DNA of 64,000 bases from positions 355,739-419,738 of the forward strand of contig DASRDX010000009.1 in NCBI GenBank assembly GCA_035652395.1. Direction: 5' to 3'. The DNA comes from Minisyncoccota bacterium. GTDB lineage: Bacteria > Patescibacteriota > Minisyncoccia > Phycocordibacterales > CAJBRS01. A program made the translations under genes and the position numbers. This document shows positions 9,617-50,201 of this stretch, piece after piece; positions within the stretch are counted from its first letter, which is position 1, and every line of letters begins with the position of its first letter. Below the pieces are notes generated by a model. That model saw only the letters and a list, made by a program, of their open reading frames with translations. It was not told the origin of the DNA and did not search any database.

Positions 9617-10279
9617 TCAGCTCTTCCCGATCGGGGCGGTGCCGGCGTAGGTGGCGACGACGACGTAGCGATCTTCCTTAGCGCCGAAACTGTTACAGGT
9701 TGAGAGAGTCAAAATGTTTTGTTTGGTTGAGAAGCTGACGTAAGCGTTAGTATCTTTTTCCAATTTCACTGAGGCGACGGTGTAAAAATAAACTCTGTCT
9801 TTAGTAAGAACTTTAATCTGATCTCCTTCTTTTAAATTGTGAATGTTGTTGAAAACTTGATAAGCCTTGTTGTTCACCACTTTGAAACCGGTGGAGTGGC
9901 CGAAGATGAACATGTTGCCATAGCCTGGCAATCCTGATCCGGGATAATGCACCGCTCCTTCCGTGAGTGCGTTATCAAGCGTGGTATTACCAGTGCTCGA
10001 GGGATTAATAACTTGATAATTTAGACCGATGACGTCAGATTGAATGCGAAGCGGCACTTGATCAGTGGGCGGCAAGGGATTTGGATTCTGAGGATTATTT
10101 TCACCGGTGATGCTTTCAATGGAATTCTCGGAAAGCTGGTTTAAGATATTGGGTGTACCTGTTTGTTCTTTTAATTCGGTTGGAATTAGACCAAAAGCAT
10201 AGAGAACGACAAAAGTAACCAAAAAAATTCCCAAAAATAAAAAAGAGAAGGTGGCTTCCGGACGTTTATACCATTTCAT
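9617..10279 (-). CDS. Sortase (transpeptidase), membrane anchored.
   Basis: N-terminal TM helix. His motif MFIFGHSTG. Catalytic TLSTC motif (TLxTC). Downstream conserved Arg in RYVVVATYAG. Confidence 0.8.
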   Translation of the reverse strand: MKWYKRPEATFSFLFLGIFLVTFVVLYAFGLIPTELKEQTGTPNILNQLSENSIESITGENNPQNPNPLPPTDQVPLRIQSDVIGLNYQVINPSSTGNTTLDNALTEGAVHYPGSGLPGYGNMFIFGHSTGFKVVNNKAYQVFNNIHNLKEGDQIKVLTKDRVYFYTVASVKLEKDTNAYVSFSTKQNILTLSTCNSFGAKEDRYVVVATYAGTAPIGKS

Positions 10280-22482: not shown

Positions 22483-23859
22483 TTAGCTGCTGGCTAAAAT
22501 ATCTATATTTGACTGAATACTCTGAACTTTGGCCATTACTTGTGTCCCGTAAGAGCAGGAGGAGCCGCCGCTGCCATAATATTTACAGGCTGCCCGAATT
22601 TCGGCGCTATAACTTCCGCCAACCGCTCCGAGATCCGACAAATAAAGGGCAGAAGCCATAAAAGCATCTTGAGGATTCCAAGGATCCGCCACATTCTTGC
22701 CGACGGCCGCTGCGATCCTAGCCTGATTTAATTTCCAAGTTGAAGCGATAAATTGAGCCGGCCCCATAGCTCCGCCATAGCCGGAGTTGCCGATTGGGCA
22801 GGAAACTTTCGTGTGATAAGGATCCCTCCCTACGGCTGCTGTAATTTCCAAAAATGGCGCCACATCTCGATCAGGTTTCATTAAATTGCTGACTGTAGCT
22901 CCCGTAGAAATCTTTGTTCCCTGTCCCGTTGAATTAAGCAAATAACAGGCACCGACATTTGCTCCGAGGTTACTTTCTTGAGTGATTATGGCTAAAAGAA
23001 ATGCTGGATCGACTCCGGTAGCTTTTTGAGCTGCTTGAGCATAAATTAAAGCGTCACCGAATTTAATAGCCGGTACGTCTCGCAGGACAAAGAGCTGGTT
23101 TCTGATTTTGGCCGCTTGAGCCTGTTTGGCCGTAAGAACACTTTGATAATTTTGCTGCTCTGACTTATTTAAATTAAGCAATTGCTGTTTTTGGGTCTCT
23201 GCTACTTTGATCTTATTCTGCTCGGCTTGAATATCGGCGCGGGTGTCTACTTCTTGATCCTTCTTCTGGCTAAGGACCTGCTGTTGTTGTTCGTTTTGAT
23301 TTTTGTCCGCTTCTACTTGATCAACGTGTTGTTTCAAAGCAGAATTGAGAGTTGAAAGAGTGTCCATATCTAGAAGGAAACTGGAAAGATCCTGACGACT
23401 TAACATGGCTTCGGCCAGCGAATATGAATCGAGCTGATTAAGCTGACGAATAACATTAGCTAAAGACTGCTGCTCGGCGCTGATGTGCTGATTTAAATTA
23501 TCAATCACCTGCGTCTTGATAGTGATATCGTGACCGAGTTGATTAATGGCAATGGTGTGAGCCTGAATTTTTAATTGAGCCTGTTTGATTTGGGCATTTA
23601 AAGAGGCGATGTCGCTTGAGATACTGCGACCTTGGGCTTTAGTTTGGTCTAAAATCTTTTGCTGGGCGGCAATTTCAGATTCAATTTGAGCAAGCTGGGC
23701 TTCCAGAGCCGCTCGCTGCTCCGGTGTTAAATTAGGGTTAACGGCCTGCCCTGAATCGCTTTGGGCAGAGACTTGCCAATAAAAAGGAGAAAAGGAAACG
23801 GCTAAGAGAAGGACTAAAGCAATTAAAATTTGGAAAAAACTTTTAAAAATTTTTAACAT
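22483..23859 (-). CDS. Secreted or membrane-anchored coiled-coil protein with a C-terminal lysozyme-like (SLT-type lytic transglycosylase) domain. Architecture is PcsB/EnvC-like.
   Basis: Start set at MLKIFKSFFQILIALVLLL (signal/TM), because the longer ORF overlaps rplY by 100 nt. The coiled coil is about 250 aa and Gln/Ala/Leu-rich. The C-terminus has AIITQESNLG (catalytic Glu-Ser), GAMGPAQF and SALYLSDLG. Confidence 0.6.
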   Translation of the reverse strand: MLKIFKSFFQILIALVLLLAVSFSPFYWQVSAQSDSGQAVNPNLTPEQRAALEAQLAQIESEIAAQQKILDQTKAQGRSISSDIASLNAQIKQAQLKIQAHTIAINQLGHDITIKTQVIDNLNQHISAEQQSLANVIRQLNQLDSYSLAEAMLSRQDLSSFLLDMDTLSTLNSALKQHVDQVEADKNQNEQQQQVLSQKKDQEVDTRADIQAEQNKIKVAETQKQQLLNLNKSEQQNYQSVLTAKQAQAAKIRNQLFVLRDVPAIKFGDALIYAQAAQKATGVDPAFLLAIITQESNLGANVGACYLLNSTGQGTKISTGATVSNLMKPDRDVAPFLEITAAVGRDPYHTKVSCPIGNSGYGGAMGPAQFIASTWKLNQARIAAAVGKNVADPWNPQDAFMASALYLSDLGAVGGSYSAEIRAACKYYGSGGSSCSYGTQVMAKVQSIQSNIDILASS

Positions 23860-23893
23860 GAGAATGATCGAGCGAGGATTAACGAGCCGGCCA

Positions 23894-24565
23894 TTATTTG
23901 GCCGGCTCGCTTCCGGCGCCGGCGTCGCCGGCGCCCTCTTCCCCTTCTTCTTCTTTCTTACCTTTCTGTTCCACTTCAATAGATTCAAGATCAATTGGAG
24001 CGACCACTTCTTCTATTTCTTCCTTCACTTCCGAAACCAAGGCTACTACTTCTTCCGCATCCGTAACTAATTCCACTCCTTGCGGCAATTTCACATCTTT
24101 AGCCAGAACTCTCGATTCGAAATTAACCAATCCCGTAACATCTACTTCAATTTGGTGCGGTAGATCTTTCGGCATCGCCTCAATTTCCAATTCGTGCAAA
24201 ACTTTCACCAGCGTTCCCCCGAGTTCCTTAACCGCCGGAGGCAAGCCATTAAATTCAATCGGTACGCCCACTTTTACTTTCTTCCCCTTTTCCAAAATAT
24301 AAAAATCAGCATGTCGGACTCGGCCGGTTACCGGATCCAGATCAATGTCGTGAATTAGAGCTTCATGTTCGTCTCCCGCCCCTTTTAGAACCAAAACGGA
24401 TGATTCCCCAGCCTCTTTCCAAGCCTTCAGAAAGTCCGCTTCTTTGACGACAATTGGGGTTGATTCAGACTTACGGCCATAAAAAACGGCTGGAATCTTG
24501 CCGTTTTGGCGAATTTCAGCCAGTTTCGCCTTCTTTTCCCTTTTTTCCACATTTAAAGTCAGCAT
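23894..24565 (-). CDS. rplY: 50S ribosomal protein L25, Ctc form, with an acidic/Gly-rich C-terminal tail.
   Basis: MLTLNVEKREKKAKLAEIRQNGKIPAVFYG. Two-domain Ctc-type length of 223 aa. Confidence 0.8.
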   Translation of the reverse strand: MLTLNVEKREKKAKLAEIRQNGKIPAVFYGRKSESTPIVVKEADFLKAWKEAGESSVLVLKGAGDEHEALIHDIDLDPVTGRVRHADFYILEKGKKVKVGVPIEFNGLPPAVKELGGTLVKVLHELEIEAMPKDLPHQIEVDVTGLVNFESRVLAKDVKLPQGVELVTDAEEVVALVSEVKEEIEEVVAPIDLESIEVEQKGKKEEEGEEGAGDAGAGSEPAK

Positions 24566-24603: not shown

Positions 24604-25086
24604 TTATTTAGGAGCTGAAAGGCAAACGATAGTAGAGTAAGGCGAAGCTCCTCTATATTGAGTATTGGCTGGATTCAACTGATAGGGCGTATATAAAGCA
24701 TAAACTATATAGGGAGCTAGGTCAGAATTATTAACAGCTTGGCTACCACAACTATATTTAAAAGACAAATAACCAGAATAAGTAGGGATTATCATTCTAT
24801 ATAAGGGGGAAGTGGGCACGCTAGATATGTAAGCGGGTACAAAGTTAGGCAAACTAACACTATCAATATTGCTCGTACTTACTGTGGGATAGGTTCCGTT
24901 ATCTGAATAATATTGTTCAACAGCATTTCTCAATTGAACCAAGTTCTGCAATACTTGCGAATCGCTAGTCTTGGCTCGGGCCGTTACAATATTAGTGAGA
25001 ATTACCGTTACCAAAAGACCAATGATCGAAAGTACTACCATTAGTTCAATTAGGGTAAAGCCTCTTTTCTGGTCACGGTTTTTCAT
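24604..25086 (-). CDS. Type IV pilin or pseudopilin (prepilin).
   Basis: Class III signal KRGFTLIELMVVLSIIGLL, with Gly-1, Phe+1 and Glu+5. Confidence 0.8.
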   Translation of the reverse strand: MKNRDQKRGFTLIELMVVLSIIGLLVTVILTNIVTARAKTSDSQVLQNLVQLRNAVEQYYSDNGTYPTVSTSNIDSVSLPNFVPAYISSVPTSPLYRMIIPTYSGYLSFKYSCGSQAVNNSDLAPYIVYALYTPYQLNPANTQYRGASPYSTIVCLSAPK

Positions 25087-25093
25087 CTAGATA

Positions 25094-25402
25094 TTATGGG
25101 CCTCTTAACTCCGGCGGTAATGTTTGTATTTCCTGAGGAGTCAACGGCCGACCGGAAGTCTTATGGGAGGTTGTTGAATGAATTACTAAATAAACGGTTA
25201 ATAAAAAGAGGATCCCAGCTATACTCAAAATAAAATGATTCGCGCCAGCTTCGGTCTGAACCCATCTCTTGCTAATGAGCCAATCAACCATGAAGGATTT
25301 TTTTCTTGGTAGATAAGAACGATTGAAAACCGGCCGATTAGTGCTTGATTCTTCAAATTCAACCTCTTCGTTCATATTTCTGATTATACCGGTCGGCCAC
25401 AA
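25094..25402 (-). CDS. Small single-TM protein paired with the pilin. Paralog of 25918..26148.
   Basis: Shares the N-terminal motif EVEFEESSTN (compare DVEFDEVRSTN in the paralog), followed by one TM helix. Confidence 0.45.
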   Translation of the reverse strand: MWPTGIIRNMNEEVEFEESSTNRPVFNRSYLPRKKSFMVDWLISKRWVQTEAGANHFILSIAGILFLLTVYLVIHSTTSHKTSGRPLTPQEIQTLPPELRGP

Positions 25403-25415
25403 CCTAGAATCAATA

Positions 25416-25934
25416 TTAACTGGTCAAATCGTAGACGTTGTCTGTGCCCCCAGGTCCGTTTGAAGCTCCGTTAAAGGTGCCGTTACCAAATGTACCCGCT
25501 GCACAAACCGGAGCGGAGCTGTCACTTCTACAATCTTTATCAGAATTCAATACCGCATTTGGGGCTTCTAACAGAGCACCTAAATGATAGAAGGTCACGG
25601 GTGCGCTTGATGGCAAAACCGCATAGCAGTACCAACCGGCCCCTCCGCAACCTGTCCCAAAAGTTTGATTTGAAGGATCTTTGGGAATAGACCCAATATA
25701 GGTTGGTGCTAGGCTCGATAGGGTTAATGGATAGGACTGATTATTACTCTCGTAATAGAGCTGTAGGGCAGTTCTTAATTGGCGAATATCCGAGATTCGC
25801 TGAGTATCTCGAGCCTTGGCCCGAGCGGTGGCAATATTTGACAGAACAATGGTGCTCAGAAGACCAATAATGGCGATCACTACCAGCAATTCAATTAAGG
25901 TAAAACCTTTTTTAAATTTATTTAGTCGGAGCAT
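25416..25934 (-). CDS. Type IV pilin (prepilin).
   Basis: KKGFTLIELLVVIAIIGLLSTIVL, followed by a Cys-containing C-terminal domain. Confidence 0.8.
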   Translation of the reverse strand: MLRLNKFKKGFTLIELLVVIAIIGLLSTIVLSNIATARAKARDTQRISDIRQLRTALQLYYESNNQSYPLTLSSLAPTYIGSIPKDPSNQTFGTGCGGAGWYCYAVLPSSAPVTFYHLGALLEAPNAVLNSDKDCRSDSSAPVCAAGTFGNGTFNGASNGPGGTDNVYDLTS

Positions 25935-26148
25935 ACGTGGTGGGCAAAGGGAAACTATTATTAGGATTAGTTAAATGACTGATACTTAAGATTAGACCGG
26001 CAATAATCAATACTAGAATAATTAAATAAAGTAGGTTGGCTCCTCTCTGGCTTTTTACAAAACCGGCAGAAATTAGAAAATTCTTTGGTTGATTTCTTTC
26101 ACTGGAAAAATTTGTTGACCGAACTTCATCAAATTCCACATCAGACAT
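25918..26148 (-). CDS. Small single-TM protein paired with the pilin. Paralog of 25094..25402.
   Basis: MSDVEFDEVRSTNFSSERNQPKNF, then TM helix LLYLIILVLIIAGLILSI. Overlaps the downstream pilin start by 17 nt. Confidence 0.4.
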   Translation of the reverse strand: MSDVEFDEVRSTNFSSERNQPKNFLISAGFVKSQRGANLLYLIILVLIIAGLILSISHLTNPNNSFPLPTTYAPTK

Positions 26149-26195
26149 ATTTGAATTATATCAAGCTATTCTTATCTCAAAAAGCTGGCTATCCC

Positions 26196-27836
26196 CTAGC
26201 CCTTACTAATGTGATTTTCCAAAAAAGTCAGGCTACCTCCTACTTTTTTACCCGGATTGAAGATATTGTGCGGGTCAAAGATATTTTTTACTTCCTTAAA
26301 AAGACCGTACATTTGAGGCCCGAACATCTCCTCCACGAAAGGTGTGCGCATAATACCGTCATTGTGCTCCGCAGTAATGCTGCCGCCATATTGAACGATT
26401 AAATCATATACTTCTTTAGCTACCGGCACGATTTTAGCTCGTTCGCTTTCTTTGGTTAAATCCATTAAAGGAATAATGTGATAATTGCCATTTCCAGCGT
26501 GACCGGCAATATTGGCCTCAATATTATTATCTTTAAGAATCTTTAGTAATTTAGGTAAAAATTCAGGCATTTTGGCCGGATCAACGGCAAAGTCGTCGAT
26601 AAAAGGGGCAGTCTTCTTTCCATGAACATGCTGACGAAGCAGATTGAAACTTTCCCGACGCATTACCCAGTATTTTTCTGAATCCGGCCCCTCTTCAAGA
26701 ACACGCACATGAATTGGAAAATTTTTTAGGATGTTTGTAATCTCTTCTGTTTTTTGATCAACTGTTTCCTTACTTTCTTCGGCGAGCTCAATTAAAAGAA
26801 TTAACTTCGGTAGACCGCCCATTTCCAATCCGATGAAAGCTTCCGGCAAGAAGTTCAGGGCGAATTTCCATAAGTGCTCGTGAGCTTTCTTGGCAATCTC
26901 CGGCATGAAGTGAAGCGCCAGTTTCAAGGTGGCGTCATCAAATGCTTCCAGACTTTCCGGAGCAAACGGTAAAATTTGATTTACCACCTTTGGTAAATCG
27001 TCCCATGATTTAAAAAAGAGGGCGATTAGTTTGCGATTAGTTGGCTCTTTAATCAGTCGCATTTTCGCTTCGGTTAAAAGTCCGAGAGTGCCTTGGGAGC
27101 CGACAAAAAGTTGGGACATATCAAACAACTTTTTGTCGGCATCGTAAACTCTCCAGAGAGCATAGCCGGAAGAATTTTTCGAAGTTTTTGGTCGGGCTTT
27201 TTCAATTAAATCTTGATTTTTAGTCACCAGTTCAAAAACTTTTCGATAAAGCTCGCCCTCAAAATTGGTGAGGGCGAGCTTTTCTTTTAGTTCACCTTCA
27301 CCAAGCTTGCCAAAAGAATACTCATTCCCATCATAGAGAACCATTTTAACTTCCTCCACAAAATCTCGAATCTGGCCGTACTTCAAAGTCTTCTCACCGG
27401 CGGCATTATTCATCACCATGCCGCCGAGCGCCGCCAGCTGTTTGGAGGCTGGATAAACTGGCAGAGAGATATGTTTAGGTAAAGTTTCTGTTTCAAAATC
27501 GCGATAGAAGACGCCGGGGCCTACATCAGCCCTAAGCTTCTCTACATCAACTTCCTCTTTTTTAAAGTATTTAGTGAAATCAAGAATAATGGAATCGTTA
27601 ATAGCTCCGCCACCCATATCTGTACCGGCCGATCGGCCCGTCAAAGATAGTCCGGGCCGATCGGCCTTCTTCTCCTCTACGTACTTGACTAAACTCTTGA
27701 CATCTTCGGTGTCTTTCGGAAATACCACTAATTCCGGCCTCACTTCAAAAAGACTGGCGTCGCGACTATATTTTGTTAGGGTTTCTGGATCATCGAGAGC
27801 CTCCCCTTTAATCAACTTTTGAATTTCTTCTTTCAT
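26196..27836 (-). CDS. FAD-linked oxidase (GlcD / D-lactate dehydrogenase-like).
   Basis: FAD-binding PCMH-type N-terminal region. C-terminal signature HAGNGNYHIIPLMD. Confidence 0.75.
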   Translation of the reverse strand: MKEEIQKLIKGEALDDPETLTKYSRDASLFEVRPELVVFPKDTEDVKSLVKYVEEKKADRPGLSLTGRSAGTDMGGGAINDSIILDFTKYFKKEEVDVEKLRADVGPGVFYRDFETETLPKHISLPVYPASKQLAALGGMVMNNAAGEKTLKYGQIRDFVEEVKMVLYDGNEYSFGKLGEGELKEKLALTNFEGELYRKVFELVTKNQDLIEKARPKTSKNSSGYALWRVYDADKKLFDMSQLFVGSQGTLGLLTEAKMRLIKEPTNRKLIALFFKSWDDLPKVVNQILPFAPESLEAFDDATLKLALHFMPEIAKKAHEHLWKFALNFLPEAFIGLEMGGLPKLILLIELAEESKETVDQKTEEITNILKNFPIHVRVLEEGPDSEKYWVMRRESFNLLRQHVHGKKTAPFIDDFAVDPAKMPEFLPKLLKILKDNNIEANIAGHAGNGNYHIIPLMDLTKESERAKIVPVAKEVYDLIVQYGGSITAEHNDGIMRTPFVEEMFGPQMYGLFKEVKNIFDPHNIFNPGKKVGGSLTFLENHISKG

Positions 27837-32142: not shown

Positions 32143-32817
32143 TTAAAGATTTTGAAAATCGGTAATAGCTCCCTCAATATCTCCACTTTCAAAGATAGCG
32201 GAACCGATGACTAGACGGTCGGCGCCGGCGGCGATTAAAGCCGGCGCCGACTCAGAATTCACTCCGCCGTCGACACTAATAACAGTCGACGGCGATCTCT
32301 CCTTCAATTCCCTCACCCTCTCCACCACTCTCTCATCAAATGGCTGCCCTTGGTAGCCAATCTGGGCAATCCCCATTAATTGAACAAAGTCTACATAATC
32401 TAAAAATGACAAAGCTTCTTCAATCGGCGTTTCCAAATCCAAGCCAAGTCCCACTTCCACTCCATCGTTTTTAAGGTCTTCTAAAACCTCTCTCAAATCA
32501 CCTTTAACGCTCTCCAAATGAACCGCTACTCTGCTGGCTCCGGCGGTTATCCACTTGCTGGCTTCGTGTTCTGGGTTATCTACCATCAAATCTATTTCAA
32601 AGTCTAATCGATCCCAAAATGGTAACCCCTCTTCTTCATGCAGGACTTTTTCAAAATCAGGATCAGCATGCAAATTGTACGGCCAGCTCTTGGAGCTCAC
32701 AAACCGTCCATCCATTACGTCAATTTGAACTACTGGTACGGTCGTCGAGACTTGCGCCAGTTTTTCTCGCAAGTCTTCATAACTTTCCGGCATTATGGCG
32801 GGAATGATTTCTGCCAT
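32143..32817 (-). CDS. rpe: Ribulose-phosphate 3-epimerase.
   Basis: VQIDVMDGRFV, VDFVQLMGIAQIGYQGQPF, ISVDGGVN. Confidence 0.85.
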   Translation of the reverse strand: MAEIIPAIMPESYEDLREKLAQVSTTVPVVQIDVMDGRFVSSKSWPYNLHADPDFEKVLHEEEGLPFWDRLDFEIDLMVDNPEHEASKWITAGASRVAVHLESVKGDLREVLEDLKNDGVEVGLGLDLETPIEEALSFLDYVDFVQLMGIAQIGYQGQPFDERVVERVRELKERSPSTVISVDGGVNSESAPALIAAGADRLVIGSAIFESGDIEGAITDFQNL

Positions 32818-33335
32818 TATTTTTTTCGGGTTACCTTATGTAACAATCTTCTGAAAATAGTTTTCTGACTTTTCATAGTCACTGATTCAATTTCTTTGAT
32901 TTTCTCAATTCGCCTTGGGTGCCGCTCTTCATCTACCAAGAATTTCGCCCCAAGCCAAAGCCTTACCATTTCCTTAGCTTCCTTTTCATTTAGAAATCTG
33001 GCACCGAGGGAGAGGATATTGGCATCATTATGATTGCGAGAGAGCTTAATAATCTCCCGATTGCCCCCATAATAGACAACTGCTCGAACGCCAGGGAATT
33101 TATTAGCCACAATTGCCTCCCCTTGCCCCGAAGCACCCAGAATAATTCCGCGAGTATTTTCCGGATCTTCCGAGACTTTTTCTGCCGCTAATTTAATAAA
33201 ATCAGGATAATCGTCGCCCATCTTATAAACAAAAGCGCCCATATCTACCACCTCATGCCCTTCCTGTTTCAAAAACGGAATCAGAACATCCTTTAATTTA
33301 AATCCAGCGTGGTCTGAAGCTATAAAAATCTTCAT
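32817..33335 (-). CDS. rpiB: Ribose-5-phosphate isomerase B.
   Basis: MKIFIASDHAGFKLK, GIILGASGQGEAIVANKFPGVRA. Confidence 0.85.
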   Translation of the reverse strand: MKIFIASDHAGFKLKDVLIPFLKQEGHEVVDMGAFVYKMGDDYPDFIKLAAEKVSEDPENTRGIILGASGQGEAIVANKFPGVRAVVYYGGNREIIKLSRNHNDANILSLGARFLNEKEAKEMVRLWLGAKFLVDEERHPRRIEKIKEIESVTMKSQKTIFRRLLHKVTRKK

Positions 33336-33341
33336 TTAATT

Positions 33342-34367
33342 TTAGATTAACTTGCCAGCTTCGATAACATGTTCAACAAGGGAGTGTGTGTACCCCATTT
33401 CGTTGTCATACCATGAGAGAACCTTCACTAAATTACCATCAATAACGCGGGTCAGTCCGAGATCGGCAATGGCGGCATGAGATTCGCCGAGGATGTCGCT
33501 GGAAACAATTTGATCAGTCACCACCGTAAATACTTTCTGCCAGCGCGGGTCAGTAGCCGCTTTAGTTAAAATAGAATTAACTTCCTCAACTGAAGTAGGT
33601 CGTTTGGAAATAAAAGTGATGTCAGCAATTGAACCGGCCGGCACGGGTACTCGCATAGAAATGCCATCAAACTTCCCTTCGAATTGAGTCAGGGCTTTGG
33701 CGGTGGCGATGGCGGAGCCGGTAGAAGTCGGTACGATATTTTGGGCCGCTGCGCGGCCCTCTTTCCAGTCTTTCTTGTTCGGTCCGTCCACAATTGATTG
33801 GCTGGCAGTGTATCCGTGAACGGTGGTGAGAATGGCTTTTTCGATTCCAATGGTTTCGTCAAGAATGGCTAGAATCGGGCTAGCCGAATTAGTGGTGCAG
33901 GAAGCATTTGAACTAATTTGAACGCCTTTCAGGGCCGCTTCATTCACTCCCATCAGCACAGTCGGAGCGCCGGCAGAAGCATCTTCTTTTACTGGAGCGC
34001 TGATTACTACTCGTTTAGCGCCGGCATCAAGATGAGGTTTGGATTTTTCAAAACTCGTAAAGAAGCCCGTTGACTCCACTACTACATCGATATCTAAATC
34101 TTTCCAAGGAAGTTGAGCGGGGTCTTTTTGGCTCAGAAATTTAACATTTTTTCCATCAATAGTCAGGCTCTGTCTGTCAGGAGCAATTTCAATCTGCAAG
34201 CCACTCCGGCCATAAACAGTGTCGTATTTTAATAGATAGGCAATGTTTTCAATATCACCGAGATCATTGAGAGCGACAATTTCAATCTCCGGTCTTTTAC
34301 TGGCTACTTTATAGAATGCTCGGCCAATACGGCCGGCACCATTAATAGCTACACGAATTTTTTTCAT
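33342..34367 (-). CDS. gap: Glyceraldehyde-3-phosphate dehydrogenase.
   Basis: INGAGRIGR, active-site SNASCTTN, TTVHGYT. Confidence 0.9.
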   Translation of the reverse strand: MKKIRVAINGAGRIGRAFYKVASKRPEIEIVALNDLGDIENIAYLLKYDTVYGRSGLQIEIAPDRQSLTIDGKNVKFLSQKDPAQLPWKDLDIDVVVESTGFFTSFEKSKPHLDAGAKRVVISAPVKEDASAGAPTVLMGVNEAALKGVQISSNASCTTNSASPILAILDETIGIEKAILTTVHGYTASQSIVDGPNKKDWKEGRAAAQNIVPTSTGSAIATAKALTQFEGKFDGISMRVPVPAGSIADITFISKRPTSVEEVNSILTKAATDPRWQKVFTVVTDQIVSSDILGESHAAIADLGLTRVIDGNLVKVLSWYDNEMGYTHSLVEHVIEAGKLI

Positions 34368-34446: not shown

Positions 34447-37400
34447 TTATGAAGTGGAGCTCCCTGAATCCGTTGGAGGCGCTGGTTCTGATGGAAGCGG
34501 CTCTGGAGCGGGATCAGTGCTTGTTCCGGAGATAGTTGAATTAGGAGAAGTTGAGGCGATGGAATCAGTAGAAGTAGAGCTTATGGTTGACCCATTAGAG
34601 CTTCCAGAAGTGTTGTCTGGCACTACTACGGTATTGTTGTTGGAATCAACAGTAATGACGGTGCCGCTTCCTTGAGTGGTTGAAGTAGCCGTAACGTCCT
34701 GACATTCCCCCGCTACGTTTACCATCGCACCATTTCGAATAACGACGCAATATGGATCACCGGTTACCTGATCGTAAAGAGTGATGCCGTTTGGATGAGA
34801 AGGCGCACCCACTGTAAGCTGCTTGGTAAACAGATGCGAGACATAAGCAATACCGTTTAGCATTTCAGCACCAAAGGATTGGAGCGCCGAAAGAAGATCG
34901 GCTCCGAGACCTGGGCCGCCGCCTCCGGCGGCGGCCCCTCCCCCAATATTCAGACTCTCCAAACTCTTCACTCGCAAGTCGAGCGAAGCGAATGCCGCCG
35001 TAGTCGACGCATTCTTATCATCCACTTTCTGATTTAGTCCTTTTATGGCTTCTACTAAGTATGGCCCTACCTGGGCATAGAGAAGGGATTTATAGCCATT
35101 GGCATCGGTTCGTACCAACTCCGGAATGGTCTTCTCCACATCCTGAGCGATAAAGCCAACTTGCGTAGTGGTCGTATCTCCTTGTCTCCAGTTATAGGTC
35201 ACTCCCTGCAAAGCTAGAACTTTATTCAGAGAATCTGATAGCGGATTAATATTCTGCTTCAATCGCTCATCTGAAGAACATGACCATCCTGTTCCTGCCA
35301 CTACCGTACACTGAGCAGTGCCGGCGCTACCATAAAATCGCGCCACATCTGTTCCTGCAGCAGAAACAGTTAAAGGATACGTTGGAGTGCTCGTCCCAAT
35401 GCCGACGTTACCAGCACCATTGTACACAATAGCGGGAGTAGCAAGTCCATACATACCAAACGATGTATAGTTTGATGTTGAATTTGTTCCTACATAATTA
35501 AAATCAATTGACGCAAGATTATAGTTTGAGGCATCTCTTCCTAATACATAACCGACCGTATTTGAACCTCCTGCTGTAGTCAGTCCGGAATAAAGCATCT
35601 TGGTAATCCAACCATTTGTTGGTCTAGAAGTTGGCTCAACCGATAACGGTGATCCGGGGTTTGTAGTACCGATGCCTACGTTCCCTGTCGCGGTATTCAC
35701 AAACAAGGCCGGCGTCGTTCCAGTGGCTACATTTAAGTTGCCCCAGACATCCAGTTTTTGAGAAGGAGAGGAGGTTCCAATCCCGACGTTGCCTGAAGCG
35801 AGAATGGTCATTCGTGTTAAGGCTCCGGTAGCAAAACTTATACTATTTGTTGGGGAATTACCACTAGTATTGTCCGAAGTAAAAGCTAAACCGACATTAG
35901 AATAAAATTGGGCGGTATTTGGAAAAGAAAATGCCCAATTACTATTAACTAGACCGAAACCTCCGTTCGTCCCATCGGCGCGGACAACTTGTACTCCTGA
36001 AAAGGCACTGGATCCAGTATTAGCATTTCGAATAGTAAGACCGTTTACAAAATTATTATCTGAATACGCAACACTTAGAGGTGTAGAGGGGGTTGTTGTT
36101 CCAATCCCGACATTGCCATTTCCATCAATTCTCATCGCTTCAGTATTGCCTACACCCGTTCGGGAAGTTGAAAAAATGAGTTGGCCAGTTCCCCAATTGC
36201 CATTTCTTGTTCCAGCTTGAGCCGCAATAGAAGCGATTCCTACAGCGTTTCCGGGGAGGTCGCGAGAAGCAAAAACTATTTGGTTAAAATTGTTTGCTGT
36301 CTCATCAAAATTATATAGAGTTAGTGCTGGTATGTTGTTGGCCAGAGTAGTGTTGCTATCTGATTGAAATATTCCTGTCACCGGGGCCCCTATATTACTT
36401 CCGTACCAGTAACCATTTGGTACTGACCCACCAATATTTAAGAAGTTCTGAGGACTATTTGTACCTATTCCCACATTCCCCGTCGCCGTATTCACAAATA
36501 GGGCCGGTGTGGTTCCCGTCGCTACATTCAAGTTCCCCCAGACGTCGAGTTTGGAACCAGGCGTCGTTGTTCCAATTCCCACATTCCCTGAAGATTTTAT
36601 AATCAATGCTTGAGTGCCATTCTGTCCTCCATTATTTGGAATAAATCCAATATCACTAATAGATCCTAATTCCATAATGGAGTTAGCTCGTCCAATGAAA
36701 GAGCCGCCTTCATTATTGAAGTTAGCTATTGTATTAAAATTGGCACCCCCATTTACATCAAGTTTATACTGAGGATTCGTCGTTCCAATCCCGACGTTGC
36801 CACTCGGCAAAATAGTGACTTGTTGATTGAATGTATTATTAGAAGATGCGCCAAGTGTTAGAGGATAATTCTGCATTGAGCCCAATTCAATACGCCCAGC
36901 GCCTGCATTCATGTGCAGCAAGCCGTACTTGGTTGTACCTTGTAAAAGCTCAAGAAAAACATTTTGGCCAGTAGGAGCTCCAAAACTCATTCCGCCGTAC
37001 GAACTTGTTGATTGAACATATAAAAGTGGATTTGAGCCATTGGAAATGGCACCTCCTCCAACACCTGCTACATGGAGATTTGCAGTTGGACTACTCGTCC
37101 CAATCCCGACGTTGCCTGTAAATGTGCTCGTGCCTGTAACTGCAATCGTACCTCCTATAGTGGCATTGCGAAGTAAGTAAAGATCTCGCCATCCCTGACT
37201 TCCTGCAGCGCCGAGGTCTTGACCTCCAGACGGAGTTAATATATTGGCACTAAATAAAATGTTTCCACTATCTGAAGAAATTATTCTTGTAGCACCGTTA
37301 ATTTGAATCATACCGCTCAGTCCACCATTGCCGCTCCGAATGGCTCCACCATTTAATGTTTCAATAGTTCCATCAACAAGTAAATTATTTGTTCCAGGAT

Positions 37401-40254
37401 CACTGACCCCTCCAATATGAACTCCTCCTGCAACAGCGAGTTTAGCTAAAGGCGTGCTTGTCCCAATGCCGACATTGCCCGATGAATCAATTCTCATTCT
37501 TTCCGATCCGTTTGTAAGCAGCCTAATTGGTCCAGACGTTGCATTATTAATCTCTAAGAAATTACCAGCTTGTTGATTGAAGGATATAGATGCTAATCGG
37601 CCAGTTGATGTTAGAAGATCAGCAAAGTTGACCGTATAAGTAGGGTCGGTCGTATAGTAAGTTGTGCCTTGATTAGAACCATTAATCATAATTTGTACAC
37701 CTCCGTTATCGAAGGCGGGGTTGCCGAACCCGTCTGGCCAGTTTAATCGGGTTGTGCCTGTTACTGTAAGTTTTTTTGAAGTGTTTGTTGTTCCAATCCC
37801 GACATTTCCCGCTTGAGTAATGTGAAATAATGACGTACCCGTCGAGGAGGCAATCTCAACTGCGTCCTTCCCCGCCACTGCTTGGAGAGTCAGTGTTGAG
37901 GATTGAGAAGTAGTGCCAAGAGAGAGATTGCGGACAATTAAGTCGCGGAAAGTGCCGGCAGAGCCGTTGTTGATTTCAAAAATCCCGGCAGCATTTCTGG
38001 TTAAACCGATATCAGGTGTTGAGCCAGTACCAAAAACTATTCCCGCCGTAGTCCAGCGAGATGGGGTGTTGTTAAAATTATTGCTACCAAGACCTAAACC
38101 TGCGGAGACTAGAGTTGAGTTGTTACCGGCATCCTTTAAGAGAAGGACGTCATTCCCTCCTATCCCGATATCTAATTCGTGAGTGCCCTGATTCTTGAAA
38201 TAATGTCCTCCATTTATTGGAAAGAGGGTCACCACTCCACTCCCGCTTGGAGCTAAAGTGATATTCTGATTCGTTCCTCCAGCATACATGGTCAAGCCGC
38301 CTGCTCCTCCTGTAATCTGCCCATTGCTCGCCACTATTGATCCGGCAAAAGTGGAAGTGGCGGAAGCATTCGTCGCCACAAAGTTCCCGGCTGTCTCGGT
38401 GCCCGTGGTAGTAGCATTTCCGGAGTTTATGAAGTTAGAAGCGGTGACGTTCCCGGTAAAATATCCGTTACCCACGACTGTTACCTTTTCAAAAGGAGTG
38501 GTGGTGGCAATGCCGAGGTTGCCCGCAACTGAACTATTCCCAGCCCCACTTACAGTTAAAGTGCCGGGCTGAGTAGAGTTGCCACTGTCGTCAATTGCCC
38601 ATTTAATAGCATTTCCTGTTCCCTGAATTTGGAAACCGCCTTGGTTACCAGAACCTGTTCCGCCATAACGGATTCTTGCAATATTGCTTAACCAAGAAAG
38701 ACCTACACTTGCTGATTGATTAGTAGGATTTAAAACTTCAACATCACCGCCAGAGGCTCCAGAGCTTTGGATAATACCATTGTATACATCTAATTTAGAT
38801 CCCGGACTAGTCGTACCGATCCCTACATTGCCATTCGCATCGATTCTCATTCGTTCAGAGCCACTGGAGCCGGTGCCAAAACGCAAAGAATTAGATCTCC
38901 CTTCGATCCGGGCGTTCTCGTTGTTCGTGCTGTAGAAAGTTAGATATTCTCCTGTATTGCCGGCATTGGTGCCCGCATTTTGGAGTCGAAAAATTTCCAC
39001 AGTTGCATTGTCTAAATCATTCTCAACATAGAGCTTAGCGGTTGGATTTGTTGTTCCAATCCCGACATTGCCGGCAAAGGTAGAGTTGGCCGCGCCGTCT
39101 GTAGCCACAAAGTAGGCGGCCACATTAGCACCGGTAGAAGTAGAATTAGTAAAAGTTAAATTAGTAAAGTTGGCATTATTGGCAAAGAAGTTGGAGGAAG
39201 TGGCACTGGTGAAGTTTCCGGACGTACTTGTAATTCTAGTACTAAATAAGTTTGTCCCGGTCGCATTGCCAAAAATAAAATTTGAGACATTGCCGTTGGT
39301 ACCATTTAGATTGGTGGAGAAGAGATTGGTAGAGGTAGCACTAGTGAAGAGATTGTTGGTGCTTGATAGATTGGCTAGGGAGAGATTAGTGCCAGTCGCA
39401 TTGGTGAAGATGAGATTGGTAATGTTAGAACTTGAAGCGTTTAGATTGTTGACGTTCTGAGTGTTGGTGAAGGTGGTGGTGCCAGAGACATTGAAGTTGC
39501 CGTTGACGGTGAGATCGTGATTGACGGTGAGATTTCCCCCAGTGTATAGATTTCCGGCAATGGTTGAAGTAGAAAAGCCGTTAAAGAAATTATTAATTTG
39601 GTTTTGGATATTAGTAATGTCGGAGTTTGAGGGACCGGTCCAAGAGCCGATTGGAGCAGAACCTCCAGAATATGTGATGTAGTTGTTGGTGATCGGTGCC
39701 GGCTGATTTGGCGCCGATCCACTTTGCGCGCCAAAAATTAGAGTGCGCAACTCTTGATCTAGATTTGAAAGCTTTTGGTTAAGTTCTTTTTCCGTGACAC
39801 CAGATTGGATGATGGTAGTTTTTTGCGGATCGACAATAGTGACTGGTTGATTTTTAGAATATGTAGTTACATTTGAGATCGTAGATGGTTGATAATTATT
39901 CTGATTTCCTGTATTTGGCTGAATGACAATCGAGGAGGTAGTGGTTGAGATGGGTGCGGGCTTTTTAAAGAGATCAAAGAAATGTTTCAGGAAATCACTG
40001 ATGGAAGAAAGCACGGAAGCTTCCATGTTAATCCCTTGTTGCCCTAAACCACTGTAGCTATTTGCCACTTGGGTCGGCAAGGTTCCGTAAAGGTGTGCCG
40101 CATCTTTAATGGAATTAATGATGGCAGAGTTCGAATTAAAAAAAGAGGTACTTCCAACAGAAGAGGCCGCCTCTACTTTAGAGACGTTTAGGAATAGGAC
40201 GCTTATTAAGAATAAAGAGCCTAAAACTTTATTAAAAACTGGGTTATGATTCAT
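34447..40254 (-). CDS. Giant secreted surface protein 1 (1935 aa). It has a signal peptide, an N-rich 11-mer tandem-repeat region, many tail-fibre-like GNVGIGTTxP repeats, and a C-terminal peptidase S74-like intramolecular chaperone domain. A conserved Cys-containing module and an S/T-rich tail follow.
   Basis: Signal peptide LGSLFLISVLFLNVSKVEA. Repeats of the type PGSKLDVWGNLNVATGTTPALFVNTATGNVGIGT. S74-like block CSSDERLKQNINPLSDSLNKVLALQGVTYNWRQGD...VGFIAQDVEKTIPELV...LLYAQVGPYLVEAIKGLNQK at about 35030..35280. Confidence 0.8.
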   Translation of the reverse strand: MNHNPVFNKVLGSLFLISVLFLNVSKVEAASSVGSTSFFNSNSAIINSIKDAAHLYGTLPTQVANSYSGLGQQGINMEASVLSSISDFLKHFFDLFKKPAPISTTTSSIVIQPNTGNQNNYQPSTISNVTTYSKNQPVTIVDPQKTTIIQSGVTEKELNQKLSNLDQELRTLIFGAQSGSAPNQPAPITNNYITYSGGSAPIGSWTGPSNSDITNIQNQINNFFNGFSTSTIAGNLYTGGNLTVNHDLTVNGNFNVSGTTTFTNTQNVNNLNASSSNITNLIFTNATGTNLSLANLSSTNNLFTSATSTNLFSTNLNGTNGNVSNFIFGNATGTNLFSTRITSTSGNFTSATSSNFFANNANFTNLTFTNSTSTGANVAAYFVATDGAANSTFAGNVGIGTTNPTAKLYVENDLDNATVEIFRLQNAGTNAGNTGEYLTFYSTNNENARIEGRSNSLRFGTGSSGSERMRIDANGNVGIGTTSPGSKLDVYNGIIQSSGASGGDVEVLNPTNQSASVGLSWLSNIARIRYGGTGSGNQGGFQIQGTGNAIKWAIDDSGNSTQPGTLTVSGAGNSSVAGNLGIATTTPFEKVTVVGNGYFTGNVTASNFINSGNATTTGTETAGNFVATNASATSTFAGSIVASNGQITGGAGGLTMYAGGTNQNITLAPSGSGVVTLFPINGGHYFKNQGTHELDIGIGGNDVLLLKDAGNNSTLVSAGLGLGSNNFNNTPSRWTTAGIVFGTGSTPDIGLTRNAAGIFEINNGSAGTFRDLIVRNLSLGTTSQSSTLTLQAVAGKDAVEIASSTGTSLFHITQAGNVGIGTTNTSKKLTVTGTTRLNWPDGFGNPAFDNGGVQIMINGSNQGTTYYTTDPTYTVNFADLLTSTGRLASISFNQQAGNFLEINNATSGPIRLLTNGSERMRIDSSGNVGIGTSTPLAKLAVAGGVHIGGVSDPGTNNLLVDGTIETLNGGAIRSGNGGLSGMIQINGATRIISSDSGNILFSANILTPSGGQDLGAAGSQGWRDLYLLRNATIGGTIAVTGTSTFTGNVGIGTSSPTANLHVAGVGGGAISNGSNPLLYVQSTSSYGGMSFGAPTGQNVFLELLQGTTKYGLLHMNAGAGRIELGSMQNYPLTLGASSNNTFNQQVTILPSGNVGIGTTNPQYKLDVNGGANFNTIANFNNEGGSFIGRANSIMELGSISDIGFIPNNGGQNGTQALIIKSSGNVGIGTTTPGSKLDVWGNLNVATGTTPALFVNTATGNVGIGTNSPQNFLNIGGSVPNGYWYGSNIGAPVTGIFQSDSNTTLANNIPALTLYNFDETANNFNQIVFASRDLPGNAVGIASIAAQAGTRNGNWGTGQLIFSTSRTGVGNTEAMRIDGNGNVGIGTTTPSTPLSVAYSDNNFVNGLTIRNANTGSSAFSGVQVVRADGTNGGFGLVNSNWAFSFPNTAQFYSNVGLAFTSDNTSGNSPTNSISFATGALTRMTILASGNVGIGTSSPSQKLDVWGNLNVATGTTPALFVNTATGNVGIGTTNPGSPLSVEPTSRPTNGWITKMLYSGLTTAGGSNTVGYVLGRDASNYNLASIDFNYVGTNSTSNYTSFGMYGLATPAIVYNGAGNVGIGTSTPTYPLTVSAAGTDVARFYGSAGTAQCTVVAGTGWSCSSDERLKQNINPLSDSLNKVLALQGVTYNWRQGDTTTTQVGFIAQDVEKTIPELVRTDANGYKSLLYAQVGPYLVEAIKGLNQKVDDKNASTTAAFASLDLRVKSLESLNIGGGAAAGGGGPGLGADLLSALQSFGAEMLNGIAYVSHLFTKQLTVGAPSHPNGITLYDQVTGDPYCVVIRNGAMVNVAGECQDVTATSTTQGSGTVITVDSNNNTVVVPDNTSGSSNGSTISSTSTDSIASTSPNSTISGTSTDPAPEPLPSEPAPPTDSGSSTS
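39130..39480 (-). repeat. Intragenic tandem repeats of about 33 bp (11-aa) in giant protein 1 (pattern xTNATGTNLFS).
   Basis: Visible DNA periodicity (gagattggt... variants) encoding NLIFTNATGTNLSLANLSSTNNLFTSATSTNLFSTNLNGTN... Confidence 0.5.
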
Positions 40255-40499: not shown

Positions 40500-43400
40500 T
40501 TAAGGATTGCTAATTGAAATATCCGTAGAAACGGGAAGACTACCTCCCGATCCCTCCCCTCCTGAATTATCGACACTCGCACCAATACCGGTATCCACTG
40601 CCGGCGGTAATGGAACAGGATTAGGTAAAATTTCTGTGGAGTTCACGGGAGAGCTCTCGTCTCCATTGGAAACAGTAGAAGTGGCAACTGGAGTAGAACT
40701 GCCGGAAGTATTGTTGGTATTATCCGGTACTACTACAGTGTTGTTATTTGAATCAATTGTAATAATGTTTCCGCTACCTGCTCCGACATTCGCTACCTGA
40801 TCGGTTGAGGTGCTGGTTGAATCCGGACATTCACCCGGGTCACTCTTCATTTCACCATTCATAAAGTAAACACAGATTGGTGAGCCGGTTCCTCGATCGT
40901 AAATGGTGAAACCGGTTTTAGAAACATCTTTACCTTTGATTGTTAAATTCTGTGTGGTGAGATGTTGAGCGAATACATTCTTCAAATATGAAATACCGTC
41001 CACAATTTCAGAACCAAATGACTGCAAGGTAGAAAGAATTTCTGAACCGAGTCCACTTGAAACTGTTACTCCCCCGCTTGTCTGCAAATCTTCCAAACTC
41101 TTTACCCGTATATCGATGGCAGAAAGTGCAGCGGTAGTGGAAGCATTGAAAGCATCTTGAGCGTCAAGGCGTGCAGTTGTGGAAGCGGTACTTGAAGAGA
41201 AACTGGCATAGAGAGATTTTACTGAAGCCATCAACAAACCGTTTACTGAAACTTGATCAATAACATTTCCCCACATGAATTGCGGATCCACTTCATCAGC
41301 GATGTATCCAATACGTTTCTTAGCCAACGGGCTATTCGAACCATAGCCTTCGACTTCGTTCTTGTATCGGAAGTAGTGGAGGGGAGAATCCAAAATCATT
41401 TTCAAAGCGCCATTGTAGTCGGAGTAATCAGTAATATCTTGCTTAGTATCTCGAGTGGAGGTTTGGGCGCCAATTACTACACCGGAGGCGTCGTTGGCAT
41501 TGGTTGGTGAAGAAGTGGAAACACGAACGTTTCCGGAACTGTCAGACCAGATGAATTTATCAATTCCTGTTCGGGATATTAAGTTAATTGAACCGGCACC
41601 GTTTGAAGCATTGGTATTGCGGCCTATTGTTAGGGTTCGGCCAGCCGCTCCTGCTCCAAGGTCAGCGTCTTCGAGATCAACAAAGGTTCGGGGAATAGTG
41701 CTTGTACCACCAATTCCAATATTTCCATTTGCAGCAATGTAAAGTTGTTGAGCGCCGGAAGAGGAAGCAACCAGAAGTGACATGTTGGCTCCTCCAACAC
41801 CTGTTACCCCAAGAGTGGCGAACGGAGTACTCGAGCCAACACCAAAGAAACCATTTGGTCGCAGAGTTAAGAGTTGAGCATTCGTGGAAGAAGCCACCAT
41901 AAATGGGTTGGTGGCGCCAGCAATACCAGTAACGGCTAAGGTGGCAAATGGAGTGGAGGAGCCGACACCGACATTACCGTTAAATGAAATGTGCAGTGCA
42001 GAGGTACCGGTTGATGAGGCAATGTCTAACAGGTCGTTAGCACCGGCCAATCCTTGAATGGAAAGTCGCGATGTACCGGTAGAAGTGCCGACGTTAATTA
42101 TTCCATTCAAAGTGTCCGCCACGAACAAGTTAGTGTTTCCAGTGGATCCTTGAATCTGCAGGGCTGTTACGGAATTAGTAGTTGATTGGAAAGAAACCGG
42201 AGCATTAACTACGCCACGAAGTTGAGTTGAACCAATCTGATATGAGGTGGCGATGGCGCCAGTCTGAAGTTGAACGGCATCAAGATAAAAGGTACGACCG
42301 TTAGCATCGGTCTGTTCAATGAAAATGTATGGGCTGCCTGAAATAGTTCCTGAAGTAAAAGTACAATAGAATCTTTTCCATCCACCAGTAACTACAGTAG
42401 TGTCATTTAAGGTACAGGTTTGTTCATTTACACCGTCGCTTGCGATGCCGGCTCGGATAGTAAAGTTGGCACCGGAAGCTTGAGAATAAAAAGATAAAGT
42501 GTATTGAGTAGCCGAGCTTAAAGCACTAGTAAATAAGGTGGTTTTGGCGCCGGAGGAAGCCGTGGCCGAATCCCCTACTGCCAGAGAGCTAACACCGTGA
42601 TACTTGTTGGTGGTCACACGGGTAGTAGAACCGGTGCCAGCAGTAATGGCCCAACCGGCGGCATTTACTTCAAAACCTGGGTTAGTCAGCAGGTTGTTTG
42701 AAGTAGTATCTACTACAAAGATTGGTGCACCTTGACTGTTTTGAACCTGAAAGGCGGTGGATGAGTTAGTTGGAGTCATGACTACCGCTGTCCCAGCCAC
42801 CGTTAAAGTCTGTCCTGGCGTAGAAGTGCTAATACCGAAATTACCATTTTGAAGCAAAGTTAAAAGTTGGGTGTTAGTAGAAGAGGCAATAATAAATGGA
42901 TTAATGCCTCCGTAACCTTTAACAGCCAAAGTGGCAATTGGAGTAGAGCTTCCGATGCCAACACTACCGGCTGAAGTAATACGCATTTTTTCTCCCAGAC
43001 CGCCGGTAGTGTTGTTCTTAAAACTTAAGTAGCTATTAGTTACACCGTTTGTGGCATCTTCTTTGCGAGCTTCAATGGTGCCAAAGACTCGAAGAGCAGT
43101 AGCGGGGCTGTCATTGTAGCCACCTAAAGTAATGGAAGCTCCGACATCTGCCGCTTGGGCGTTGGTGGTATAGACATTCAAATTACCGAATACGCTACCG
43201 GCAGTAGTAACGTTGGCTGAAGCAATATCTACCGTACTATTTGGACTAGCGGTGCCAATTCCAATTTTGCCGGTGGCAGTGTTTGCCGAGAAAAGCGGGG
43301 TGGAAGAAGTGGCGATATTCAGGTTGCCCCAAATATCCACTAATTGAGAAGGAGAGGAGGTACCGATACCAATCTTCCCTACCGCCGTGTTTGCAATGAA

Positions 43401-46799: not shown

Positions 46800-46873
46800 T
46801 TCAGAATCCCTCTGAAATATATCCCCCTCGTTCAATTTAGAGTCCTGAACTAGACTTTTATCCCTCGTCTAAA

Positions 46874-48434: not shown

Positions 48435-48435
48435 A

Positions 48436-49194: not shown

Positions 49195-49230
49195 GAGATT
49201 TTTAGAGGCGCCGCGAAGCGGCGCCTCTTC

Positions 49231-50199: not shown

Positions 50200-50201
50200 A
50201 A

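Follow-up and report, generated by a model that had tools for sequence, protein, structure and literature searches.

Why would a gene for a tiny membrane protein stand directly before a type IV pilin gene, twice in succession, and what could its product do for the pilin? The question is raised by a 64-kb stretch of a metagenome-assembled Minisyncoccota (Candidatus Paceibacterota) genome (assembly GCA_035652395.1, contig DASRDX010000009.1, positions 355,739 to 419,738), analysed as a whole and called the window below. Two pairs, each made of a small gene followed by a prepilin gene, are tightly packed there on the minus strand between positions 26148 and 24604, and all four open reading frames (ORFs) lie where a first-pass annotation of the sequence had placed them. 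This annotation had also proposed that the pair, and not only the pilin, was duplicated, and that its two members are functionally coupled. Gene order across the Patescibacteria strongly supports the genetic coupling of the small gene and the pilin, the pair being a recurring unit. Two qualifications apply: the duplication is old and not a recent tandem copy, and the link is not obligatory.

The first gene of pair 1 (25918..26148) encodes a protein of 76 aa, small76, deposited at NCBI as hypothetical protein VFA52_02310. It has an MSDVEFDE N-terminus, a degenerate juxtamembrane motif (FLISAGFVKSQRGAN), one transmembrane (TM) helix and a proline-rich tail of 19 aa. The second gene (25416..25934) encodes the type IV prepilin prepilin172, which begins with MLRLNKFKK-G followed by FTLIELLVV. 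As read from the sequence, the two genes share 17 nt, the prepilin starting before the end of small76 and in a different frame. In pair 2, the first gene (25094..25375) encodes small93, a protein of 93 aa deposited as VFA52_02300 (P0001), with an MNEEVEFEE N-terminus, the motif WLISKRWVQTEAGAN, a TM helix at about residues 42-70 and a 28-aa tail. Only 7 nt, read in the same way, separate its stop codon from the start of prepilin160 (24604..25086), a type IV prepilin that begins with MKNRDQKR-G followed by FTLIELMVV. The mechanical ORF of the second small gene is longer, running from a TTG at 25402 to 25094 and giving 102 aa, and the small proteins had accordingly been described as 76-102 aa long. 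The lower figure holds, but the upper one does not: the true start is almost certainly the ATG at 25375, since the family alignment and the deposited 93-aa protein both point to it and a TATAAT box lies inside the 5' extension of the TTG reading. A six-frame motif scan of the window detected no prepilins or small proteins of this family beyond these two of each. Neither did the window contain a PilB, PilC, PilD, PilT, PilM, PilN or PilO gene when its ORFs were read and most of the larger ones were scanned with Pfam, which agrees with the absence of PilB, PilC, PilD and PilT genes noted at first.

The larger gene of each pair had been called a class III prepilin, and the profile searches bear this out. 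The N_methyl model PF07963 scored 36.1 bits on prepilin160 and 35.8 bits on prepilin172 (cut-off 21.2), and TIGR02532 scored 33.7 and 36.3 bits, respectively (cut-off 16.3). Each prepilin carries either KRGFTLIELMVV or KKGFTLIELLVV, and both have a short basic leader, Gly(-1), Phe(+1), Glu(+5) and a hydrophobic alpha1-N helix of about 20 residues. The leader and helix read MKNRDQKRG/FTLIELMVVLSIIGLLVTVIL in prepilin160 and MLRLNKFKKG/FTLIELLVVIAIIGLLSTIVL in prepilin172. The two proteins are paralogs, as had been proposed: their N-terminal 89 aa are 48% identical (E = 5e-26), and divergence is much greater in the C-terminal domains (37 bits). They are ordinary GspG/PilA-like pilins of Patescibacteria, with diverged C-terminal domains. 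More generally, the pilin of such a cassette is a GspG/PilA-like type IV prepilin with a near-invariant GFTLIELLVVISIIGLLSS segment.

Are the two small proteins also related, and do they have relatives elsewhere? Compared directly by BLASTP, small76 and small93 show only a marginal similarity (E = 3e-4 over 35 aa), and word-indexed homolog searches with either of them returned nothing but the query itself. A HMMER scan of a profile of the two proteins against 1.84 billion representatives gave 38 further hits with E < 1e-3. Two of these hits were repeat artefacts and were excluded; the other 36 are small proteins of 60-131 aa that align from residue 1. Together with small76 and small93 they form an alignment of 38 sequences, called A2, with which a word-indexed search retrieved 7 proteins only. 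A leave-out hidden Markov model (HMM), built from the 36 other members, which had themselves been recruited by the profile of small76 and small93, scored small93 at 77.0 bits (best of 500 shuffles, 1.8) and small76 at 51.3 bits (best of 500 shuffles, 5.2). Since these scores are far above the shuffle maxima, small76 and small93 are homologous, and the paralogy first proposed for the small proteins is upheld. No match to the family was found in Pfam-A, NCBIfam, PADLOC or the PDB, apart from scattered sub-threshold noise. The small proteins thus form one family that is in neither Pfam nor NCBIfam. A link to defence systems was considered and rejected, PADLOC having yielded noise only.

Two blocks define the family in A2. 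The N-terminus reads M-x(1-3)-[VI]-[EQ]-F-[ED]-[ED], with F in 37 of the 38 sequences and V or I in 33; of the two acidic positions that follow F, the first is E or D in 31 sequences and the second in 32. It is followed by a polar linker of about 15-28 residues without conservation, then by a juxtamembrane block, (K)-M-v-x-[WF]-L-I-K-K-G-x-[VA]-K-x-E-K-[GQ]-A-N, which leads straight into the TM helix (A in 37 of 38 sequences, L and K in 34 each). Within the alignment, [WF]-L-I-K-K-G-x-[VA]-K-x-E-K-x-A-N is the strongest signature of the family, one that the first-pass annotation had not listed; both window proteins carry it in the partly degenerate forms given above and still align. The tail after the TM helix is optional, 1-72 residues long, rich in Pro, Ser, Asn and Gln, and not conserved. 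A candidate tail motif, T-P-[EQ]-[EQ]-I, was rejected, being present in only 5 of 31 tails. The motif initially described, (D/E)VEF(D/E)E.(R/S)STN, needs revision. It fits small76 (DVEFDEVRSTN), while small93 has one residue fewer (EVEFEESSTN); its first part holds in the family as M..VEF[DE][DE], whereas "STN" is common to small76 and small93 only and is not conserved. The N-terminal similarity itself (VEF[DE]E) is statistically significant.

A short form of the family, mostly of 47-51 aa (e.g. MPPT..ESAFANFLINKGIVKNESSAN plus a TM helix), was also observed and has no VEFEE N-terminus. It occurs at L015 4647-4790, L017 5578-5721, L030 5440-5589, L039 3780-3926, L051 6136-6282, L019 2615-2821 and L056 4718-4873 (L numbers denote the loci that we retrieved), in Saccharibacteria and in unclassified "uncultured bacterium" records. 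It stands alone or directly upstream of the long form, with or without a pilin.

The juxtamembrane block raises the question of whether the small proteins could themselves be derived from pilins. K-K-G-x-x-x-x-E before a hydrophobic helix superficially recalls the G(-1)...E(+5) of a prepilin, and they might then be degenerate pilin-like pseudo-substrates of the prepilin peptidase, PilD. Alternatively, they might be holins of the phage type, small93 having a weak match to PF23778, Phage_holin_2 (E = 0.009, 16.7 bits against a cut-off of 32). Both identities are disfavoured, and we consider this explanation exceedingly improbable. Aligned by hhalign with the N-termini of the partner pilins, the family profile reached a probability of 9.6%, over the TM helices only; no family member matched N_methyl at E <= 0.1, and about 10 charged residues lie between the Gly and the TM helix. 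The holin match concerns 1 of the 38 members, falls below the cut-off and comes from a housekeeping context, not a phage one.

How far does the pairing extend beyond this locus? We looked up 12 family representatives in public assemblies, and for 10 of them (P0027, P0013, P0030, P0003, P0032, P0041, P0005, P0009, P0020 and P0038) the start of a prepilin lies no more than about 20 nt from the stop codon of the small gene, the pilins beside P0005 and P0038 having been read from the DNA. The two exceptions, P0019 and P0006, are both tail-less forms of 62-63 aa. More loci were fetched from GTDB genomes and from metagenomes by two degenerate DNA patterns that cover the small gene only. These patterns gave many false positives, about 30 of the 54 genome loci and 29 of the 35 metagenome loci being without a family gene. 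An HMM search over all the fetched loci identified 46 unique family genes, 30 of which have a prepilin motif within 200 nt downstream. Five others either open a small-small-pilin array or have one short ORF between themselves and the pilin, which makes 35 of 46 when arrays are included. By these counts, the family is not found mostly away from pilin genes, in line with the pairing first suggested. As only 2 of the about 60 genes in the window are pilins, the enrichment of pilins beside family genes is very large.

The geometry of the pair is also preserved. In most loci of the Paceibacteria type, the distance from the stop codon of the small gene to the Gly(-1) codon of the pilin is 9-50 nt, which implies that the genes overlap or are at most about 20 nt apart. 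The order, small gene then pilin, is fixed across Paceibacteria, Taylorbacteria and Saccharibacteria, and the named source organisms are all Patescibacteria (Paceibacteria/Paceibacterota, Taylorbacteria, Saccharibacteria or "Patescibacteria group"). The link is stronger for some members than for others: with a tail of at least 10 aa, 19 genes are adjacent to a pilin and 1 is not, vs. 11 and 10, respectively, for tail-less members (Fisher p = 0.004, not corrected for phylogeny). Both small76 and small93 are tailed. The pilin link is therefore typical of the family, and neither universal nor obligatory. As a separate observation, a convergent gene of the FtsW/RodA family closely follows the small gene, or the small gene and pilin, in several unrelated loci, on the minus strand each time (L030 5976-7124 and L051 6681-7829, by sequence reading; L101 717-1868 and L098 5593-6396, by Pfam).

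We then considered the age of the duplication, for which the surroundings of the pairs are informative. Upstream of pair 1 lies a gene for an FAD (flavin adenine dinucleotide)-linked oxidase (27836-26196, minus strand; PF01565 and PF02913 by Pfam). A terminator-like hairpin at its stop codon (26187..26201, minus strand; a consensus match only), which covers its last 6 nt, parts it from pair 1. Downstream of the pairs are the genes for ribosomal protein L25, an SLT_2 transglycosylase, ribosomal protein L31 and release factor 1 (RF1). L25 was identified by ORF reading and by synteny with the Pfam-annotated locus L005, SLT_2 by Pfam, and L31 and RF1 by ORF reading and synteny with L005. The SLT_2 lytic transglycosylase (22483-23994, minus strand), two genes downstream of the pilins, is a protein of 503 aa with a long N-terminal part that resembles a coiled coil. 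All these neighbours are housekeeping genes and not phage genes.

In L005 (GCA_038215155.1), the order is PfkB, fructose-bisphosphate (FBP) aldolase, FAD oxidase, small69, pilin172, small100, pilin164, L25, SLT, L31 and RF1. This order matches that of the window and both pairs are kept, so the two-pair arrangement predates the split between the two species. Moreover, small76 and small93 are not each other's best hits. The C-terminal domain of prepilin172 is 68% identical to that of its ortholog in L005, and it is closer to that of a pilin in the locus L003 (48% identity) than to that of prepilin160. On these comparisons the duplication is an old paralogy. A recent tandem duplication is rejected, because the small proteins are not mutual best hits and both pairs have orthologs in L005. 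It was also observed that the order L25 then SLT, after a pilin or after a small gene alone, is kept in L005 and in the locus L069.

The cassette is not tied to one site. In another Paceibacterota genome (L003 481-4718, the same as L004), three cassettes stand beside or between the genes for GAPDH, RpiB and Rpe. In the window, these three genes follow one another directly (32143-34367), uninterrupted by any cassette. Since the L003 cassettes interrupt genes that are contiguous in the window, the cassette has been gained, lost or moved as a unit. One of the L003 cassettes is preceded by an unrelated ORF of 105 aa with a TM segment.

Is each pair also expressed as a unit? On the minus strand, a TATAAT -10 box preceded by TTGA (26155..26160) lies 6 nt before the ATG of small76, and another TATAAT box (25383..25388), the one inside the 102-aa extension, lies 7 nt before the ATG of small93 at 25375. 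They are candidate promoters for pair 1 and pair 2, respectively. No TATAAT box precedes either pilin, and a TATAAT is found at -12 to -15 before many family genes in other loci. We infer that each pair forms its own transcription unit, which would start at the small gene with a leaderless or nearly leaderless mRNA. As a -10 box precedes the ATG of the small gene and none precedes the pilin, one leaderless bicistronic mRNA is probably made per pair, and the translation of the pilin is probably coupled to that of the small protein.

The same geometry is widespread in the window. TATAAT (or TACAAT) lies 5-9 nt before the ATG at 12 starts of ORFs of at least 50 aa, for 14 occurrences of the pattern: 10279(-), 10336(+), 20881(+), 22437(-), 24565(-), 25375(-), 26148(-), 27836(-), 28929(+), 32125(-), 34367(-) and 56645(-). 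Most of these starts belong to evident genes, including those for L25, L31, GAPDH, transketolase, PfkB and the FAD oxidase. Leaderless mRNAs therefore seem to be common in this Paceibacterota genome. A promoter specific to the cassette was rejected, this geometry being present at all 12 of these ORF starts.

These signals bear on a reading in which the small ORF serves mainly for expression, as the first cistron of a leaderless mRNA that hands ribosomes to the pilin, the peptide itself mattering little. A TATAAT 6-7 nt before the ATG of the small gene in both pairs, with a similar arrangement in many other loci, fits this reading, as does the absence of an obvious Shine-Dalgarno sequence before either pilin, where the junction is a 17-nt overlap or a 7-nt gap. 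Yet conservation is seen at the protein level (F and A each in 37 of 38 sequences, LIKKG..K..AN, the TM helix) while codons differ between copies, the family persists without a downstream pilin, and the leaderless geometry is genome-wide. A role restricted to expression is thus very unlikely.

Then, where would the small protein lie in the cell? Small76 and small93 each have one hydrophobic window of 19 residues with a mean hydropathy above 2.4, and neither has a folded external domain. An AF2 model of small93, computed with A2 (pLDDT 80.9), shows a coil at residues 1-27, a helix at 28-35, a turn and a helix at 42-70. Hydropathy and model thus agree with the single TM helix attributed to each protein at first. 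Across the family, the mean number of K and R residues around the TM helix is 3.1 on the N-side vs. 1.4 on the C-side, and the first 12 residues carry a mean net charge of -3.2. By the positive-inside rule, the topology predicted for these proteins is single-pass and N-in: the conserved N-terminus and the basic motif would be cytoplasmic and the tail outside. The first-pass annotation had suggested a chaperone, an assembly factor or a minor-pilin factor as possible roles. Because the only parts conserved are predicted in the cytoplasm or in the membrane, and because some members have no tail, the protein is unlikely to be part of the filament or a chaperone that acts outside the cell.

The same topology would suit a membrane-anchored regulator or sensor of the pilin pool, similar to PilS sensing PilA, whose conserved N-terminal peptide would report pilin levels to a cytoplasmic partner with no role in assembly. 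The predicted cytoplasmic position of the conserved parts, the external tail being variable or absent, and the probable co-expression with the pilin are compatible with such a sensor, and stand-alone copies could sense pilins encoded elsewhere in the genome. Nevertheless, the small protein has no DNA-binding, kinase or other signalling domain, and no conserved regulator gene is found nearby in any of the loci looked up. In addition, a shared mRNA with apparently coupled translation fits better with a partner made in matching amounts. We therefore consider a sensor quite improbable.

The reading that we favour, with a confidence that stays a little below an even chance, is that the small protein is an accessory or escort protein of the pilin, acting from the cytoplasmic face, and not a subunit of the filament. 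It would be synthesised together with its pilin, and its TM helix would place it beside the membrane-embedded prepilin. The cytoplasmic acidic peptide and the basic helix-turn could then hold, process or deliver the pilin. The acidic peptide may engage the basic leader of the prepilin or PilD, or it may dock on the PilM/PilC/PilB platform. Contact with the pilin, if any, would most plausibly involve its near-invariant alpha1-N segment. A more specific and more tentative version would make the family a component of type IV pili across the Patescibacteria, i.e. a tiny accessory dedicated to the pilin, made from the same leaderless mRNA and acting at the cytoplasmic face, which perhaps gates processing by PilD through its acidic peptide or hands the prepilin to PilM/PilC.

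Several observations weigh against an accessory dedicated to the pilin. Eleven of the 46 family genes have no pilin nearby, 10 of which are tail-less, and some pilins have no small partner (L013 at 5183, L073 at 1511 and L015 at 3904). In L069, the order FAD oxidase, small gene, L25, SLT, L31 is found without any pilin; the family gene there (5731-5910, minus strand) encodes a tail-less protein of 59 aa, identical to a protein in L077. The ortholog of small76 in L005 (3279-3488, plus strand; 69 aa) still has the DVEFNE motif, the TM helix and an FPLPTSY tail, but it has lost the LIKKG..AN block and scores only 13.5 bits on the family HMM, in spite of a partner pilin 68% identical to prepilin172. 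Constraint on that copy may thus be relaxed and, with L069 also considered, the coupling is not absolute. The TM helix is conserved chiefly in hydrophobicity, with weak positional signals only, and the promoters are called from their consensus alone. Finally, small-protein similarity does not follow the similarity of pilin C-terminal domains (Spearman -0.06, Mantel test not significant), and partner swaps within genomes reached the observed value in 7 of 24 cases. These comparisons thus give no sign of partner-specific co-evolution.

Part of this evidence favours a general envelope or membrane protein of the Patescibacteria, with a function unrelated to the pilin. Adjacency would then result from abundant surface-related genes that use a common strong promoter, or from a cassette that spreads as a unit. 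The 11 family genes without a pilin nearby, the small gene alone at the syntenic site of L069 and the undetected co-evolution with the pilin C-terminal domain are all expected under this explanation. So are the forms of 47-51 aa without the VEFEE end that occur alone (L019, L056), and the short-plus-long pairs that adjoin a convergent FtsW/RodA-like gene (L030, L051, L101). On the other hand, 30 of the 46 genes lie directly upstream of a gene class that accounts for only a few percent of genes, the two genes overlap or lie close together, the order is the same across Paceibacteria, Taylorbacteria and Saccharibacteria, and tailed members are linked to a pilin in 19 of the 20 classifiable cases. 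A function independent of the pilin is thus unlikely, with more in its favour than the other alternatives considered here.

If the small protein is a pilin accessory, does it resemble any known one? Its nearest known counterparts, the TfpY/FimB cassettes and PilO/GspM, are not homologous to it. TfpX, TfpY and TfpZ (FimB-like) form pilin-accessory gene cassettes in Pseudomonas aeruginosa and other Pseudomonadota (PMC11841053). TfpY promotes pilus assembly and probably contacts pilins without being incorporated in the filament (PMC11841053). This is the role that we propose for the family described here. In both systems, a small membrane protein is encoded beside a major-type pilin gene and co-regulated with it, in two-gene cassettes with diverse pilins. 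The resemblance does not extend further, and no sequence relationship with TfpX, TfpY or TfpZ was found. In the TfpY-like cassettes, pilA comes first and an attenuating terminator separates it from the accessory gene, whereas the family gene lies upstream of the pilin and is apparently translationally coupled to it; in the window pairs no terminator stands between the small gene and the pilin, which overlaps or follows within 7 nt. TfpY-like proteins have 170-245 aa, three N-terminal TM helices and a periplasmic alpha/beta domain (PMC11841053), in contrast to the 60-131 aa, the single TM helix, the lack of a folded external domain and the predicted cytoplasm-facing conserved parts of the present family. 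The former belong to the Pseudomonadota, the latter to the Patescibacteria.

PilO, PilN and GspM (PulM) are bitopic proteins, single-pass and N-in, as predicted here for the small proteins. PulM binds the major pseudopilin through membrane segments, and a conserved cytoplasmic peptide at the N-terminus of PilN binds PilM. A TM contact with the pilin, as for PulM, plus a cytoplasmic docking peptide, as for PilN, is the model that we propose for this family. However, PilO, PilN and GspM contain a ferredoxin-like domain in the periplasm and are covered by Pfam families of their own, and these Pfam models gave no match to the window small proteins at E <= 1 or to family members at E <= 0.1. Their genes are located in machinery operons, once per system, unlike the family genes, which lie beside individual orphan pilins. 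The acidic VEFEE motif at the N-terminus is unrelated to the PilN motif. Moreover, TfpY and PilO/GspM (PulM) act on pilins from the periplasmic side, whereas the action proposed here would be from the cytoplasmic face. Within the open-access literature, no such pilin partner is described in Meheust 2019 (PMC6744442), in a study of the TM7x pilus (PMC11623550) or in a study of the T4SS in Patescibacteria (PMC12102498).

Other genes of the window may also concern the cell surface. Two giant adjacent ORFs on the minus strand, at 34447-40254 (1935 aa) and 40500-46835 (2111 aa), carry repeats of the GN(V/I)GIGTTxP type. In the 1935-aa ORF, residues 1661-1715 match Peptidase_S74, a domain known as the intramolecular chaperone of endosialidase (E = 3.6e-17), and both ORFs look like tail-fibre-like surface proteins. 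At 47079-50873, on the minus strand, four consecutive ORFs have hydrophobic N-termini. One of them (49231-50199) also has a TM helix at its C-terminus and matches WxLIP_PGBD/DUF916 weakly, below the threshold (E = 1.5e-4), and another has an fn3-like region; this group may be a WxL-type cell-surface cluster. Bactofilin and sortase genes are close together at 8261-8671 and 9617-10279, both on the minus strand, with an ORF without assigned function between them (8828-9511).

What would the finding mean for these bacteria? Type IV pili are among the few surface structures present in nearly all members of the Candidate Phyla Radiation (CPR)/Patescibacteria. To our knowledge, pilin biology in this group has so far been told only through the classical Pil proteins. 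In Saccharibacteria, type IV pili are essential, or important, for attachment to host bacteria (PMC11623550). We think it nearly as likely as not that the cassette is of the pilin-accessory type, its proposed role being filled by an unrelated, much smaller, cytoplasm-facing and Patescibacteria-specific partner. If the small protein instead functions independently of the pilin, what remains of the finding is a new family of small proteins, strongly biased in its synteny. An unannotated small protein coupled to many orphan pilins in at least three groups of Patescibacteria is a candidate for a lineage-specific step of pilin handling. This candidate is testable, as the family occurs in the Saccharibacteria, a group for some members of which genetic tools exist (TM7x, S. 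epibionticum). The family HMM could also improve the annotation of thousands of "hypothetical" CPR genes of 60-130 aa.

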